Source: Bibersteinia trehalosi
Lineage (GTDB): Bacteria > Pseudomonadota > Gammaproteobacteria > Enterobacterales > Pasteurellaceae
Assembly (NCBI RefSeq): GCF_004346205.1
Contig: NZ_SMAM01000006.1
Location: 38,839 to 102,838, forward strand
Direction of reading: 5' to 3'
Length of the DNA stretch: 64,000 nucleotides
Shown piece after piece: positions 9,367 to 20,594 of this stretch (its first letter is position 1; each line of letters opens with the position of its first letter). A program made the position numbers and the translations under genes. Below the pieces are notes generated by a model that was not told where the DNA came from, did not search any database, and was given only the letters and a program-made list of their open reading frames with translations.

Positions 9367-9400
9367 AAAGGCTGAACGTTTCTTGTTCAGCCTTTTTATT
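9367..9400. terminator. bidirectional rho-independent terminator (cysK / kpsT convergent)
   Basis: AAAGGCTGAAC-GTTTCTT-GTTCAGCCTTT followed by TTATT. Confidence 0.6.
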
Positions 9401-10049
9401 ATTGATTGGCGTTGTAAAACTTATAGGCTTCGTCAATATTTTCAAACTGATGCATTACGCCTTTATTCAGCACCATTGCATTATCACAATATTCTTTAAT
9501 TGCAGCAGGGCTATGTGAAACTAAAATAATTGAGCGGTCTTTGCGTTTTTCAAATAGCTCATGTTTACATTTTGCTGCAAAGCGGGAATCTCCTACGGCA
9601 ATGACTTCATCAATTAAGTAACAATCAAATTCCACCGAAAGAGATAAAGCAAAGGCAAGGCGAGCTTTCATACCTGAAGAATATTTTTTTACTGGCTCAT
9701 ATAAATAGTCGCCTAGTTCTGAGAATTCCTCGGTAAAGGCTTTCATGTAATCAAAATCTACATCATAAATTCGGCTGATAAAACGTAGATTATCCATCCC
9801 TGTTAAGCTACCTTGAAACGCACCACTGAATGCAAGCGGCCAAGAAATACTCATTTTGCGTTCGATTGTGCCTGTTGTTGGCGGTTCTACACCACTCATT
9901 AGCCGAATAAGCGTTGATTTCCCTGCACCGTTGCGTCCTAAAATCCCGACTTTCTCGCCTTTTTTGAGATCAAAATTTACATTACTTAGCACAGTTCGCC
10001 ATCCGGTACGAGTGAGGTAACGTTTGCTCACATTCTTTACACTAATCAT
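9399..10049 (-). CDS. kpsT: capsule polysaccharide export ABC transporter, ATP-binding protein (KpsT/BexA/CtrD/CpxA family)
   Basis: 216 aa; Walker [10 protein letters not shown]; close to BexA/CtrD signatures; first of a 4-gene export operon. Confidence 0.9.
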
Positions 10050-10843
10050 CGTGGTTCAATTCCTTTACTGAAATTTCTTACCATCATTAACCCAAACCAA
10101 ATCATGGCAAGATCGCAAATAAGCAAGAAACTAATATTTTCATAGGTGGGAATCGTATCGCCAAAATAACCATGGCGGAACATCTCCGTGCCATTAATCA
10201 TAGGTATCCACTGTGCATATTCTCGAGCTTGTTGTGGCAACGTGTGCACAAAGAAAAATGCGCCAGATAACGGCAGCATCAAGAAGCTTAATGTTCCCCA
10301 TAGTTTGCCAAACATTTCGAATTTTTGTGCGATACTACAGATAATTAATCCTAAACCTAGCGCAAAGAATGCCATCAACAGCCAAGCAAAAATCATATAT
10401 AGCGCATCTTGTGGCATATCTATCCAACCAATGAGTATAAATAATGCCATAATTAAAATTTGTGCAATACTTGCTCCAGCGACTTCAAGTAACACGCGTG
10501 TAATAATTGTATCCAGTACTCGCACATTACGATGATAAAGCAAGCTTAAATTCCCTGAAATTGCTCCGATCGTACGGTTAGACGTATTCCGCCACATCAT
10601 TGCGATGGGATAACCTGTAATCATAAACGCAATAATATTTAAAGTAGAAAACTTGTCTGCTCGGATAAAGTTCCACATTAACGTAATGAGTAGCGTCATT
10701 AGCAATGGCTCAATAAACAGCCATAGAAAGCCTAAGTTTCTGCGGCCATAACGTGTAATCACTTCCCGCATTAATAAGGCACCAATCACGCGCCCTTGGA
10801 TAGCGAGTGATTGGCGAAAAGTGGTTTGATCTCCGTATTGCAT
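10046..10843 (-). CDS. kpsM: capsule export ABC-2 permease (KpsM/BexB/CtrC/CpxB family)
   Basis: 265-aa ABC-2 type membrane protein; 4-nt overlap with the ATPase gene. Confidence 0.88.
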
Positions 10844-11985
10844 CAGTTTTTATGCTCTCTAATACTTGCGATTAATAAGCCAAATACCCCATACAACATT
10901 AAACCGATAATAAAGGTGGCTAAAATGTTATATAAACGATAAGGCTCAACCGCCCAGTCTGGTTTGCTAGGTTGATTAATCACTTCCAAATAAAGTTGTT
11001 GGCGATCCGCTTCATTGCGTGTGTTTTGCAACGATACCATTGCTGTGGTTAATTGTTGCTGTGCAAGTTCATTATCTAGTACTAAGCGCTGGTAATCAGC
11101 TGCTTGTGTTGCAATGGAGTTACCACTGCCAGCTAAAGATTTAGACTGTTGTTCAAGCTGGGCTTTTAGGCTTTTTTGACGCTGTTTTAGCGCACCAACT
11201 TGCGGGTTATCTGGGGTAATAGATTCTAATTGTGCCAACTGGGTTTCAACCCGAATCAGTTCACTGCTCAAATTAGAAACTAACGCAAGCTGCGCATTAG
11301 ATTGCGCGGGTAAATCAACAAACTTATTTTTTACACGATAATAAGTTAAAGCATCTGCTGTTTCTTTTACCTTTTGTTCTGCAATTTCAACCGCTTGCTC
11401 TGCAAATTCAACCGTATCCATTCTTGCCCGTTCATTTAAGCGATTAATCAACTCTTCGCCTTGTTTAATTAAGCGTTCGTTAATTGCAAATCCCTCTTCT
11501 GGATCAAAAGCGCGGATACGTAAAGTGGCAATGCCTGCAACAGAATCAAAATCCACATTCAAACGATCTTTAAAATATTTATAGAATGCCTCTTGTGAGT
11601 TATTCCAGCCAAAACCGTTAAAGCGGCTTAAAATATCGCCTTTTTCAGAATAGAATTCACGTACAGGCAAAGTTTGTTGCAACTGCTCTAGTGCGGTACG
11701 TGAACGCATATATTCTTGCACGGTGTAAGTATCATCTTGCGAACGGGCAAAACCGCTACCTTGCAATAATGCACCAACACCACTTAACGCTGTTTGATTA
11801 CGCGGAGAGCGCACAACAAAGCTTGATTCTGAAATATAAATATCGGAAGCATAGCCACCAAAATAGATTGCAGAAAAGAGCGTTGGTAAAATAACAGTTA
11901 GCCATAACAATGGGCTAAATAGCTTGGATAATTTTTTCTTTTTTTTCGGTTGTATTTGGGCTTCTGCCGTTACATTGTTTTCCAT
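10843..11985 (-). CDS. kpsE: capsule export inner-membrane polysaccharide co-polymerase-like protein (KpsE/BexC/CtrB/CpxC family)
   Basis: 380 aa; N-terminal TM then SESSFVVRS motif typical of BexC/KpsE; C-terminal TM. Confidence 0.88.
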   Translation of the reverse strand: MENNVTAEAQIQPKKKKKLSKLFSPLLWLTVILPTLFSAIYFGGYASDIYISESSFVVRSPRNQTALSGVGALLQGSGFARSQDDTYTVQEYMRSRTALEQLQQTLPVREFYSEKGDILSRFNGFGWNNSQEAFYKYFKDRLNVDFDSVAGIATLRIRAFDPEEGFAINERLIKQGEELINRLNERARMDTVEFAEQAVEIAEQKVKETADALTYYRVKNKFVDLPAQSNAQLALVSNLSSELIRVETQLAQLESITPDNPQVGALKQRQKSLKAQLEQQSKSLAGSGNSIATQAADYQRLVLDNELAQQQLTTAMVSLQNTRNEADRQQLYLEVINQPSKPDWAVEPYRLYNILATFIIGLMLYGVFGLLIASIREHKN

Positions 11986-19100: not shown

Positions 19101-19541
19101 ATAGAGGCATTTGCTGAAGTAAATAAAAAACATAAAGACACTCGTTTATTTATTTTGGGTGATGGAGCACTAAAACAAGAATTAATTACACGAATTAAGG
19201 AGTTATCACTTGAAAAAGACGTATTTTTATTAGGACAAAAGACAAATCCATTTGCTTATTTAAAGCAAGCTGATATTTTTGTGTTATCCTCAAATCATGA
19301 AGGACAACCAATGGTACTACTAGAATCTTTAATATTAGGTACACCGATTATTGCTACAGATATTGTCGGCAATAGAAGTATCTTAGGTAATAAATATGGA
19401 TTACTAGTTGAAAATAGTAAACAAGGCTTAATCAATGGTATGAATGAATATCTTGAAAATGGCTCAAAACAAGATAATTTTGATCCTATTGCATATCAAA
19501 AAGATGCAATGGATAAGTTTTACGCATTGCTTAATGAATAA
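16128..19541 (+). CDS. multidomain teichoic-acid-like capsule polymerase: TPR repeats + TagF-like CDP-glycerol glycerophosphotransferase + GT4 glycosyltransferase
   Basis: 1137 aa. N-terminal ~370 aa of TPR repeats; middle TagF-like motifs (IDSNELLGYCDLLITDYSSIIYDFLALNKP); C-terminal GT4 E-x7-E region (EGQPMVLLESLILGTPIIATD). Confidence 0.75.
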   Translation: MKYKVKLSLIPMLLKGLYAYKHKNYNEAERIFALLLDKQGDNAYLNFRYGMALYKSKKWDEANYYIQKAINIDPSKKSWQVQLATSERYKQNSEKVKVAEAKKAAIKDPNSPEVIWEYAISLLENKQYWMAKLQFEKYLILKPNSEKAFDNLGKVSEKLSDYPEAIKYFEKAASLSPFNSNYKYRIGYSYECLGDLENANTYYELVSSFAKSNDDVALFGIGALHAKRGLWDKALNAYKQFLAKTQSNNPELYYRIGVANERLYLWEDAGKAFEQAVKLSEIITAPWCFKCGQAYERAKNYAKAVEFYQNAVARSNNYNDYWLYRLAYSMEMMGNFEQAAKYYQQSRRRKIAHAVAPKDVIKNKEEEYLTYYTEYYETLAVNEKQVLIESFFGGNISCNPYAILLYMLDHNYDFTYIVVVKPETVIPDSLKFKQNIIFINRGSDAYLRYLCTAKYLINNVSFPYYFIRKAEQIYLNTWHGTPMKTLGKDIKSPFQDHSNVSRNFLQATHLISPNRHTTDIMLEKYDIKDLFSGEIAETGYPRIDLSFLSEERRNEIRKKLGFKNNKPVVFYAPTWRGTSQSKDFDTQKLQNDLKRLKSDKYNLVFRGHHLVESLLSEIKLDVVVAPKEIDSNELLGYCDLLITDYSSIIYDFLALNKPAISYVYDFDEYKEERGLYFEKDEMVGAVCSTISEVRQAILENLNTNKSNVLERDIEKYSYLDDGRATQRTIDFIFDNDRSSIYQYKRRASDVFFEGPFIPNGISRSFLNLMSSLNNHKNNITLLINGADIAQDHKRINEFNNLPDNVTVLSRVGRTPMTLEELWVKTKFEETYQFYSKEFEETLIRIYKRESRRLLGDSKFNNAIHFEGYALFWVLLFSQINANQHIIYQHNDKYKEWKGRFPYLEGVFNAYKFYDKIVSVSEKTMENNINNLSKEFNLSKDKFDFCNNSININQVISSAKDGIEIEDEFANFAGTKFINIGRMSHEKDQLKLIEAFAEVNKKHKDTRLFILGDGALKQELITRIKELSLEKDVFLLGQKTNPFAYLKQADIFVLSSNHEGQPMVLLESLILGTPIIATDIVGNRSILGNKYGLLVENSKQGLINGMNEYLENGSKQDNFDPIAYQKDAMDKFYALLNE

Positions 19542-19547
19542 GGACAA

Positions 19548-20594
19548 ATGTATATGCAAAATTTCCAAAAAATTGATTTTACATCTAATACAAAATATGA
19601 AGAGCTCAATATAAATTTTGAAGTAGATGAAATTTATATTGATAAATCAACTATTGGCAAAGATGAAAAAGAAAAATTGAATTTTAATTTTTTGGCTGTT
19701 GGACGGGCAAATAATGAAGCTAAGAAGTTAATAGCACAGCTCTCTAATAATAGGTATTTCTTAACAGCCCACTCTAATGGGGTATCCCTATTTAAGAAAT
19801 TCAATAATGCAGATGATTTTCTACCAAATTTTAATAACAAAGCAGTTAAGACATGGAATGATACATTTTATATATTAGAAGAGCCTATTGAGAAGGAACA
19901 ATCTAATTCTCGTTTACTTGTTATTTTTTCATCTATTGCGGATCTTCCATTTAACGCATCTATTGATCGTAGAATGTTTTTTAAAAACTTTCCGAAAGTT
20001 GGAAAATATATTCCTAAAAATACTTATATCTTACGTATTGCTGATATAGGAGGAGTTTTAGGTAGTTTTTACTTAAATAGCAATTCAGATATGCAATTTG
20101 AAAATAAAATTAAGGATTTAATTCATAAAATCCAATTAGAAAATTCTATATCTGATAAGCACACCGTATTATATGGCACTTCAAAAGGAGCGACTGGAGC
20201 TCTTTACCATGGTATAAAGATGGGATTAAATACCTTGGCAGTAGATCCTATCATTTCAGATGTACATTATCTAGAAAAGTTTAATGATTTACATTTTGTG
20301 TCAGATGTTTTTCCTGAATCAAAGCAGGATAAGTTTGCTAAATTATTTACAGAATACAAAGATAAAGATTTAACTCATATAAAATTAGTTACATCGCCTA
20401 ACTCTGAACAATTTAATTATATTAGTGAATTAATATTGATTCCAAATATAAGACTCTGCTCATATATATTTAGTAACCCAAATATAAAAGGGCATACAGA
20501 TATGGGGGAACATACGCTCAATTTTGTTACCTCTATGTTAAACAATATGTTATATGATCTAGAAATAAGAGATAGTTTATCTACGACTTATTGA
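19548..20594 (+). CDS. putative alpha/beta-hydrolase-fold protein (candidate capsule O-acetyltransferase/esterase)
   Basis: GxSxG nucleophile elbow (YGTSKGATG), later Asp and a C-terminal His in Ser-Asp-His order. AT-rich like the rest of region 2. No closer family assignable by eye. Confidence 0.35.

Follow-up and report, generated by a model that had tools for sequence, protein, structure and literature searches.

Gene content and composition of the capsule locus

The DNA analysed here, a 64,000-nucleotide stretch of contig NZ_SMAM01000006.1 of the ruminant pathogen Bibersteinia trehalosi (assembly GCF_004346205.1; referred to as the window, with positions counted from its first letter), harbors at positions 9399 to 20594 what is very probably an ABC-transporter-dependent (group 2) capsule locus of the cpsABCDE type, functioning by the CpsA to CpsE and Kps pathway proposed below. 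This type is common to the "type I" loci of Actinobacillus pleuropneumoniae (serovars 2, 3, 7, 9 and 11) and to Neisseria meningitidis serogroup H (NmH). Nine open reading frames (ORFs) are present, four on the minus strand (9399-13176) and, divergent from these, five on the plus strand (13330/13354-20594). An earlier inspection of the letters alone, made without database searches (the sequence-only reading), had described a minus-strand operon kpsT/M/E/D divergent from five plus-strand genes, with which the ORF map agrees exactly.

Domains were assigned with Pfam and NCBIfam at curated cut-offs. The minus-strand genes encode homologues of KpsM and KpsT, KpsE and KpsD within a single operon, the set found in group 2 exporters. 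The kpsT/cpxA-like gene (9399-10049) encodes an ABC transporter ATPase of 216 amino acids (PF00005), which is 99.5% identical to that of strain USDA-ARS-USMARC-188 (strain 188) and 86.5% identical to that of the A. pleuropneumoniae comparison locus L003, a serovar 9/11-like type I locus standing in for the serotype 3 locus. The kpsM/cpxB-like gene (10046-10843) encodes an ABC-2 permease (265 amino acids, PF01061; 81% identical to A. pleuropneumoniae), for which the best NCBIfam match was KpsM (NF050053, E = 3e-27), a sub-threshold hit with 96 bits at a cut-off of 300 bits. The inner-membrane periplasmic adaptor encoded by the kpsE/cpxC-like gene (10843-11985, 380 amino acids) matched the BexC/CtrB/KpsE family TIGR01010 with 540 bits (cut-off 437.5). 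The kpsD/cpxD-like gene (11995-13176) encodes an outer-membrane polysaccharide export protein of 393 amino acids (PF02563 Poly_export and SLBB_2; 75% identical to A. pleuropneumoniae) with a lipoprotein-like N-terminus.

The five plus-strand genes, cpsA to cpsE, form region 2 (13354-20594). The G+C content (GC) of this region is 0.326, while 424 equally long segments elsewhere in the 64 kb ranged from 0.392 to 0.428 (mean 0.408), none of them falling below 0.392. The GC declines along the biosynthesis operon from 0.372 in cpsA to 0.280 in cpsE, and at third codon positions (GC3) it is about 0.20 in cpsD and cpsE. The export genes have a GC of 0.411. As is usual for group 2 loci, a region 2 of atypical composition, which varies between strains, adjoins export genes that are 99-100% identical between strains. 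The estimate in the sequence-only reading that region 2 is more AT-rich than its surroundings was correct, and its description of a group 2 capsule locus whose low-GC region 2 has been exchanged horizontally is supported by the Pfam and NCBIfam assignments together with the composition.

Over 23.4 kb, the DNA of the window matches the B. trehalosi Logan assembly SRR8436118 with 100% identity, and over 23 kb it is 97.8% identical to the chromosome of strain 188, with equal gene order. Orthologues of all nine genes are found in L003 at 57-91% identity (CpsB 91%, CpsD 72%, CpsE 71%, CpsC 63%, CpsA 57%, Kps proteins 73-87%). The literature already covers the system and its polymerase family, the transition transferases that build the linker, and also the polymerase allele (Bt-189), and as a capsule locus it holds nothing new.

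As had been proposed from the letters, kpsC and kpsS are not located in the window: none of 20 further ORFs of at least 300 amino acids, taken from all over the window, matched the KpsC/KpsS family PF05159 (Pfam, E ≤ 1e-5). These 20 ORFs and the ten locus proteins leave two ORFs of more than 300 amino acids, whose counterparts in strain 188 are ZnuA- and FA_synthesis-family genes. The missing neighbourhood of kpsC and kpsS could be taken to mean that the product of the plus-strand genes is a glycerol-phosphate glycopolymer outside the capsule, for instance a lipopolysaccharide or membrane decoration, and that these genes merely adjoin the export genes. Nothing specific favours this, and it is exceedingly improbable, as the divergent-operon architecture is kept across B. 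trehalosi strains and A. pleuropneumoniae, and the polymerase Bt188 of strain 188, 92% identical to the one encoded here, makes the authentic serotype T3 capsule backbone (PMC8262930).

Priming and linker enzymes

The first gene of region 2, cpsA (13354-14532, in an ORF that opens at 13330), encodes a TagB-like CDP-glycerol glycerophosphotransferase of 392 amino acids (PF04464, 43 bits; cut-off 22.1), 57% identical to CpsA of A. pleuropneumoniae and 99% to that of strain 188. Its C-terminal helix is basic, with a net charge of +9 over the last 45 residues (+11 in A. pleuropneumoniae). CpsA thereby combines the features by which transition transferases are recognized, namely membership in PF04464, encoding by the first gene of region 2 and an electropositive C-terminal helix. 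[quoted passage not shown]

The product of cpsB (14548-14976, 142 amino acids) is a glycerol-3-phosphate cytidylyltransferase, assigned as TagD/Gct by the equivalog family TIGR01518 (194.8 bits; cut-off 165.4) and by an HxGH motif (in the sequence TFDLLHHGH). It is 91% identical to CpsB of A. pleuropneumoniae and 100% to that of strain 188. The synthesis of CDP-glycerol by CpsB enzymes was assayed for Cps3B and Cps7B (PMC8262930).

The third gene, cpsC (14988-16118), encodes a LicD-family enzyme of the nucleotidyltransferase fold (376 amino acids, PF04991, 28.3 bits; cut-off 22.6) with an N-terminal tetratricopeptide repeat (TPR) region, in which the TPR matches are weak and all below the cut-offs. 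CpsC is 63% identical to the A. pleuropneumoniae protein. Two aspartates, at positions 247 and 293, are essential in Cps7C (PMC11666461); D243 and D289 of the B. trehalosi protein align to them within identical local motifs. For this mapping, CpsC of L003, which also carries aspartates at 247 and 293, was used as a stand-in for Cps7C. CpsC can be considered a probable poly(Gro3P) linker polymerase by analogy to the A. pleuropneumoniae enzymes. The TagD-like CDP-glycerol synthase, the TagB/F-like transferase of about 392 amino acids and the LicD-family protein with an N-terminal TPR region, all expected from the sequence-only reading, are in this way accounted for by CpsB, CpsA and CpsC.

The pathway has been reconstituted for A. 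pleuropneumoniae serotypes 3 and 7 (PMC11666461). There, CpsA adds the first Gro3P to poly-Kdo, CpsC, a LicD-family protein with a predicted N-terminal TPR domain, makes the poly(Gro3P) linker, elongation of this linker depends on CpsD's TPR domain, and long-chain synthesis is stimulated by CpsA and CpsC (PMC11666461). From the second TagF-like protein and the LicD protein, the sequence-only reading had deduced either a split between primer and polymerase or a second phosphodiester substituent, beyond the simplest described polymers. The former proposal agrees with the roles of the A. pleuropneumoniae orthologues. The latter, in which the finished polymer would receive a second phosphodiester substituent (e.g. 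a glycerol-phosphate side chain) from CpsA, CpsC or both, with no part for them in priming or linking, is very unlikely. Both proteins belong to phosphotransferase families (PF04464 and PF04991) and LicD enzymes elsewhere decorate polymers, but the A. pleuropneumoniae orthologues (57% and 63% identity) act in vitro on Kdo acceptors and build poly(Gro3P), which is then elongated by CpsD (PMC11666461), so that a second substituent is largely refuted by the reconstitution. [quoted passage not shown] Since cpsA and cpsC are part of the standard described pathway, no second phosphodiester substituent is needed to explain their presence, and nothing beyond the simplest described polymers is called for.

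The capsule polymerase CpsD

The largest gene of the locus, cpsD (16128-19541), encodes a three-module capsule polymerase of 1137 amino acids, in which TPR repeats, a TagF-like domain (PF04464, 255 bits, residues 379-733) and a GT4 domain (PF00534, 112 bits, residues 975-1124) are combined in a single polypeptide, the architecture of the TagF-like/GT-B polymerases. The crystal structure of Cps3D (PDB 8qoy) matches CpsD over its full length with 1887 bits. With domain limits taken from that structure (PMC11666461), CpsD consists of a helical N-terminus with TPR (residues 1-357, nucleotides 16128-17198), the CgoT module, a Gro3P transferase (residues 358-735, 17199-18332), and the CgaT module, a GT4 galactosyltransferase (residues 746-1137, 18363-19541). 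The catalytic residues are kept, namely H479 in CgoT and R981, K986, E1058 and E1066 in CgaT. Their counterparts in Cps3D are H479 as well as the pair R982/K987 and the EX7E motif E1059/E1067 (PMC11666461).

The fusion of TPR, TagF-like and GT4 domains and its kinship with A. pleuropneumoniae and Neisseria polymerases had been recognized from the letters, and are borne out by the Pfam matches and by 8qoy. The polymerase is not unusual, however, as had been held at the time: it is 92% identical to the assayed Bt188 (PMC8262930) and 99.7% (1134/1137 residues) to Bt-189 of strain 189 (AHG84818.1), which was catalogued in 2018 by Litschko et al. (PMC5974469, Fig. S3, also S4 and S6). CpsD is furthermore 100% identical to B. 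trehalosi TCT15147.1 and 72% identical to the A. pleuropneumoniae proteins. Residues 1-650, comprising the TPR and most of CgoT, are 100% identical to Bt188, residues 651-735 are 95% identical.

Polymerase activity and linkages were assayed for Bt188, Cps3D, Cps7D and Cps11D (PMC5974469, PMC8262930). In the polymer made by Bt188, Gro3P is attached to O4 of galactose (Gal) and Gal to O1 of glycerol, and its nuclear magnetic resonance (NMR) shifts match those of the de-O-acetylated serotype T3 capsule (PMC8262930). The glycerol 13C shifts tabulated for the (1→1) pattern of the Cps7D type are about 71.1, 72.0 and 69.2 ppm, those for the (1→2) pattern of the Cps3D type about 64.0, 79.9 and 67.2 ppm (PMC5974469, Table 1).

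A mosaic cassette in cpsD and the predicted linkage

One block of cpsD differs sharply from strain 188. Between 18305 and 19010 (plus strand), encoding residues 727-958, 218 of 706 nucleotides differ (31%), as opposed to 96 of 10490 (0.9%) elsewhere in the locus (Fisher p = 5e-197). The block is sharply bounded, and the remaining locus is approximately 99% identical to strain 188. With strain 189, in contrast, the cassette DNA is 100% identical. The encoded segment corresponds to the N-terminal acceptor-side Rossmann subdomain of CgaT (CgaT-NT, residues 747-947 in Cps3D; PMC11666461) together with the interdomain linker. A repeat search across the locus for insertion sequence elements or flanking repeats that would mark the cassette or the locus yielded only short matches at chance level.

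The protein segment encoded by the block shows 65% identity to Bt188 and 77% to A. pleuropneumoniae CpsD, whereas the values for the rest of the protein are 99% and 70%, respectively. The corresponding block of Bt188 is 64% identical to the A. pleuropneumoniae alpha-1,2 enzymes. A set of 11 Cps3D-like homologues from other taxa is invariant at 91 block positions; the protein encoded in the window departs from them at 2 of these, Bt188 at 12. For the invariant positions of the other domains, no sequence, including Bt188, shows more than 5 differences, without asymmetry between window and Bt188. Nine positions divide the Bt188 group from the Cps3D-like group, and at all nine the window has the Cps3D-like residue ("E-type"). 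E753V, P758Q and S762T, located in the first loop (FFEGPF), are among the nine. Published matrices are in line with these values, with 98.7% identity between Bt189 and Bt188 in the TagF-like domain but only 80% in the GT-B domain. There, CshC of NmH is 70.7% identical to Bt189 compared to 64.6% to Bt188, and Cps3D is likewise nearer to Bt189. Subdomain exchange is not confined to B. trehalosi, because divergence restricted to the cassette is repeated in an unrelated lineage, in a pair of 1172-amino-acid polymerases from Logan assemblies (P0009 and P0013) whose identity drops from 93% in the rest of the protein to 60% in the block. This recurrence suggests selection on the CgaT-NT module.

The only difference between the T3 and T15 backbones is Gal(1→1)Gro versus Gal(1→2)Gro (PMC8262930, PMC11666461). 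Among the short five-gene loci of B. trehalosi, exactly two types were observed, which differ essentially only in the acceptor-side block of CgaT, and the allele of the window groups with four enzymes of known 1→2 linkage (Cps3D, Cps9D, Cps11D and CshC). Because the Cps3D-like allele of the CgaT acceptor subdomain is present and not that of Bt188, the polymer backbone is predicted to be →4)-alpha-Gal-(1→2)-Gro-(3-P→, the type of T15, Escherichia coli K2, NmH and A. pleuropneumoniae serotype 3, instead of the (1→1)-linked T3 backbone; judged from the polymerase sequence, we hold this to be moderately probable. The wider proposal is that homologous exchange of the CgaT-NT cassette of about 700 bp switches the serotype (T3 versus T15-type) by converting Gal-alpha-(1→1)-Gro to Gal-alpha-(1→2)-Gro, the rest of the 1137-amino-acid enzyme and of the locus being unchanged, and that CgaT-NT may be a natural plug-in specificity module. 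We regard this proposal as evenly balanced. If the cassette acts in this way, E753 and its neighbours in the FFEGPF loop are candidate determinants of regioselectivity.

Several points weigh against the predicted (1→2) linkage, and most of them favour a functionally neutral swap, in which the polymerase would make the T3 backbone →4)-alpha-Gal-(1→1)-Gro-(3-P→ like Bt188 and the block would be a trace of recombination only. The specificity of GT-B enzymes can shift with few residues. Bt-189, which carries the same cassette, is known by sequence and modelling only. According to the published matrix, long-range identity in CgaT tracks lineage and not linkage: the alpha-1,2 polymerase c3694 of E. 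coli K2 is no nearer to Cps3D than to Cps7D, and linkage does not track similarity between the short and the long polymerase clades. The locus tag prefix EDC51_ and the style of the accession presumably point to a project in which type strains were sequenced. ATCC 29703, presumably the type strain of B. trehalosi, appears as the serotype 3 strain in PMC11978888; if it is the source of the DNA, the T15 prediction conflicts with the finding that Bt188 makes the T3 backbone. On the other hand, the divergence is limited to exactly the acceptor-side subdomain (31% of nucleotides against 0.9% elsewhere), the loss of residues invariant among Cps3D-like enzymes is greater for Bt188 than for the window in the block, with no comparable asymmetry in the other domains, and the cassette-only divergence recurs in P0009 and P0013. 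The neutral swap is therefore considered rather unlikely, though it deserves to be taken seriously. A residue signature for 1→1 versus 1→2 linkage across the long clade (Cps7D, Cps2D, CszC and K2) was also considered and was rejected, as the published matrix is dominated by lineage there.

The natural pair of strain 188 and the window amounts to a near-isogenic experiment with enzymes one subdomain apart, which could locate the determinant for galactose attachment to O1 or O2 of glycerol. This bears on making defined capsule antigens with enzymes for use in veterinary glycoconjugate vaccines, on genome-based serotype prediction in B. trehalosi, where strains remain unserotyped, and on the question of how capsule diversity arises by recombination within rather than between genes.

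The putative O-acetyltransferase CpsE

The last gene of region 2, cpsE (19548-20594), encodes an XcbB/CpsF-family protein of 348 amino acids (NF033892, 308.9 bits; cut-off 125). The AlphaFold model (predicted local distance difference test score, pLDDT, 94.1) has an alpha/beta-hydrolase fold, and a GTSKG motif is located at residues 210-214. In an alignment of 46 homologues, G210, K213, G214, D238 and D247 were invariant, while S212, H316, D233 and H249 were kept in at least 90% of the sequences. Ser212 and His316 together with an aspartate form a candidate catalytic triad.

CpsE is most likely a capsule O-acetyltransferase. A role as possible O-acetyltransferase had been put forward in the sequence-only reading for the alpha/beta-hydrolase, and it is made plausible by the fold, the GTSKG motif and a PDB homologue, about 75% alike and apparently with acetyl-CoA bound, that has a suggestive name: the entries 9hvz, 9hwh, 9hwi and 9i87 match CpsE by sequence (E = 9e-165), and one molecule is named "bacterial protein _ ACoA". 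Foldseek against the PDB gave esterases, the DPP4 catalytic domain and Gap2/Asp2 as best matches (probability 1.0). Both sequence and fold place Gap2/Asp2, which we take to be a glycan O-acetyltransferase of the alpha/beta-hydrolase fold, closest to CpsE among relatives studied for function. Since 9hvz and CsaC were not among the 50 matches listed, the fold search supports the term "alpha/beta-hydrolase" only and not "acetyltransferase".

A functional link between CpsD and CpsE is indicated by their fusion in Aquabacterium sp. A7-Y, where a protein of 1723 amino acids (P0089) consists of a CpsD-like polymerase and a C-terminal CpsE-like XcbB/CpsF domain (residues 1424-1721, 38% identity). E. 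coli K62 (K2ab) is probably the O-acetylated variant of K2. Serotype T15 has been reported to be identical to K62 (K2ab) (PMC5974469, reference 52 therein). For T3, the reference spectrum came from polymer termed "native, de-O-acetylated" (PMC8262930), from which it follows that native T3 is O-acetylated.

Alternatively, CpsE might act as an esterase or remove acetyl groups as a de-O-acetylase, or it might take part in capsule assembly without catalysis or in some other manner. Hydrolases (esterases and DPP4) head the list of fold matches, Cps7E of A. pleuropneumoniae was still labelled as of "unknown function" in 2024, with CsxB, another member of the XcbB/CpsF family, merely a candidate transition transferase in the same study, and a literature search found no paper describing the 9hvz group of PDB entries. 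These arguments are countered by the name of the PDB homologue, by the position of Gap2/Asp2 as nearest studied relative and by the O-acetylation of native T3, for which the short locus provides no other acetyltransferase gene. We consider a function other than O-acetylation improbable.

Capsule locus types in B. trehalosi strains

The locus of strain 188 (polymerase Bt188, AHG82487.1) has the same gene order and the same short five-gene region 2 as the window, with CpsA, CpsB, CpsC and the Kps proteins 99-100% identical and CpsE 97% identical. It differs in the 706-bp CgaT-NT block and in a smaller patch of cpsE at approximately 19600-20000, which is 92-93% identical. Strain 189 (USDA-ARS-USMARC-189) possesses the same cpsD type as the window but a different cpsE allele (77% amino acid identity). 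The 3' half of cpsE in the window (20000-20594) is 100% identical to strain 188 and only 67-79% identical to strain 189.

Strain 189 further contains an extra cassette of 5.7 kb between cpsE and orf207 (14478-19901 of its locus, L005), which is absent from both the window and strain 188; in the window, the site lies between approximately 20580 and 20649. The cassette encodes a nucleotidyltransferase-like protein, a hexapeptide O-acetyltransferase, an EcbF/BcbF capsule phosphatase (TIGR01689, 243 bits), an APH-like kinase and two further proteins without assigned function, one of 538-554 amino acids and one from a small ORF. Its products presumably attach a side-chain substituent. The same cassette is found in loci like that of strain 192 (11057-16418 of L006), together with a Bt188-type cpsD and a third cpsE allele.

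The window combines the 189-type CgaT-NT cassette with the 188-type 3' half of cpsE and the short form of the locus. Across the strains, the E-type and the Bt188-type (V) CgaT-NT alleles each occur with and without the 5.7-kb cassette, in four combinations. If the cassette in cpsD was indeed exchanged, the locus would descend from homologous recombination that joined a 189-like with a 188-like locus. The window-type cpsD and cpsE seem to occur jointly in four further Logan assemblies, since contigs with one common set of four lengths are listed in both protein clusters, so that the combination found in the window is probably an established type.

The complete genome sequence of strain 189 has cpsA called as two parts of 80 and 311 amino acids and cpsC as two parts of 194 and 184 amino acids (7231-8408 and 8864-9999 of L005), while the copies in the window are intact. 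The split calls could stem from frameshift errors in sequencing or mark true pseudogenes. In some genomes of B. trehalosi, the polymerase is of the long clade (1259 amino acids, 37% identical; P0083 and P0252-P0257), and a GT-A/TagF-like polymerase, namely that of Y31, represents another B. trehalosi type in the literature. Since both exist, the capsule locus types of B. trehalosi outnumber the four named serotypes.

Proposed pathway

The steps proposed here are deduced by orthology to the reconstituted system of A. pleuropneumoniae serotypes 3 and 7, and the literature is the source for the activities of Bt188 and of the orthologous A. pleuropneumoniae enzymes. KpsS and KpsC, encoded outside the window, would build a lipid-poly(beta-Kdo) anchor. 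CpsB would make CDP-glycerol, from which CpsA would transfer the first Gro3P to Kdo, and CpsC would extend this primer into a short poly(Gro3P) linker. [quoted passage not shown] This polymer would probably be O-acetylated by CpsE and would be exported by KpsMT, KpsE and KpsD.

Some observations speak against parts of this scheme. With kpsC and kpsS not seen in the 64 kb, the anchoring to poly-Kdo is assumed. The LicD match of CpsC barely exceeds its cut-off (28.3 versus 22.6 bits), and the proposed role of CpsE derives from the name of a PDB entry, the fold and analogy. The activities ascribed to the B. trehalosi enzymes encoded here follow from orthology, and Bt-189 was modelled only in the work of 2018.

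Comparison with other capsule and teichoic acid systems

The type I loci of A. pleuropneumoniae serovars 3, 7, 9 and 11 (cpxDCBA and cpsABCD(E)) share the divergent architecture, the gene order, the domains and the catalytic residues with the locus of B. trehalosi (PMC11666461, PMC6008488). The chromosomal flanks are different, with cysK and an S6 autotransporter gene in B. trehalosi and modF and ydeN in A. pleuropneumoniae, and the window is without the GT8-like cpsF found in the serovar 9/11-like locus L003.

For region A of NmH, only the four genes cshA-D are listed, which encode Gct, a protein of the LicD type, a TagF-like polymerase and the XcbB/CpsF-family protein CshD; no homologue of cpsA is named (PMC3647402). 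The N. meningitidis XcbB/CpsF match (P0160) comprises 344 amino acids and is 59% identical to CpsE. As the cshD gene of 1035 bp gives a protein of equal length, P0160 is probably CshD. The backbone chemistry predicted for the window is that of NmH and of E. coli K2. The polymerase of the latter, c3694, belongs to the long clade (about 1266 amino acids) and is 39% identical to CpsD.

The Gram-positive wall teichoic acid pathway (TagD, TagB and TagF/TarF/TarL) has the CDP-glycerol chemistry and PF04464, represented here by CpsA and the CgoT module, in common with the capsule pathway. Structures of wall teichoic acid TagF (3l7i and relatives) match CpsD with E = 4e-35, and the logic of priming, short linker and main chain is common to both pathways (PMC11666461). 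The acceptors are different, being a lipid-poly-Kdo anchor in the capsule and undecaprenyl-PP-GlcNAc-ManNAc (undecaprenyl-diphosphate-linked N-acetylglucosamine and N-acetylmannosamine) in wall teichoic acid. Compared to the latter, the capsule system has in addition a LicD-family linker polymerase, a TPR- and GT4-fused polymerase and KpsMTED export.

Locus edges and neighbouring genes

At the left edge of the locus, a hairpin with a 13-bp stem (9366-9396), situated between cysK (8397-9347, plus strand) and the 3' end of kpsT, is likely a bidirectional terminator. The divergent intergenic region (13177-13353) should carry the promoters for both the export and the biosynthesis operon. Promoter-like hexamers are found on both strands (e.g. 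13289-13317 on the plus and 13235-13207 on the minus strand). In a promoter scan of this region, such sites were no commoner than in shuffled sequences (57 versus 48 ± 7), so that the hexamers are mere candidates.

The gene downstream of cpsE, orf211 (20638-21273, plus strand), starts 44 bp past cpsE and encodes an apparently secreted, Lys/Ala-rich protein with a low-complexity region, for which no Pfam family was matched. There is no terminator in the gap between cpsE and orf211, and a strong one at 21296-21318; orf211 is possibly co-transcribed with cpsE. The gene is kept in strains 188, 189 and 192, outside the variable region, and is probably not a capsule gene. An equivalence to the DUF5358 gene flanking the A. 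pleuropneumoniae locus was considered and rejected, since there is no homology.

On the minus strand, the neighbouring gene (21365-25876) encodes an autotransporter of the Peptidase_S6 (IgA-protease-like) family with 1503 amino acids. It is intact in the window and in strain 188, while fragmented calls are found in strains 189 and 192-like. Compared with strain 188, divergent patches are located at approximately 21400-21800 (91.5% identity) and 23800-24600 (about 95%).

Farther downstream, a plus-strand gene group (42590-46042) looks like a bufferin-type operon for a ribosomally synthesized and post-translationally modified peptide (RiPP). It starts with a DoxX-like gene (42590-43045) and a gene for a secreted precursor of 119 amino acids (43076-43435) with repeated AAEGKCGEGKCGA motifs. 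These are followed by an MbnB/TglH/ChrH (DUF692) enzyme (43556-44515; PF05114, E = 3e-94) and a partner protein of 236 amino acids (44525-45235). An extracytoplasmic function (ECF)-sigma-like gene and a small anti-sigma-like gene (45289-46042) form the end of the group.

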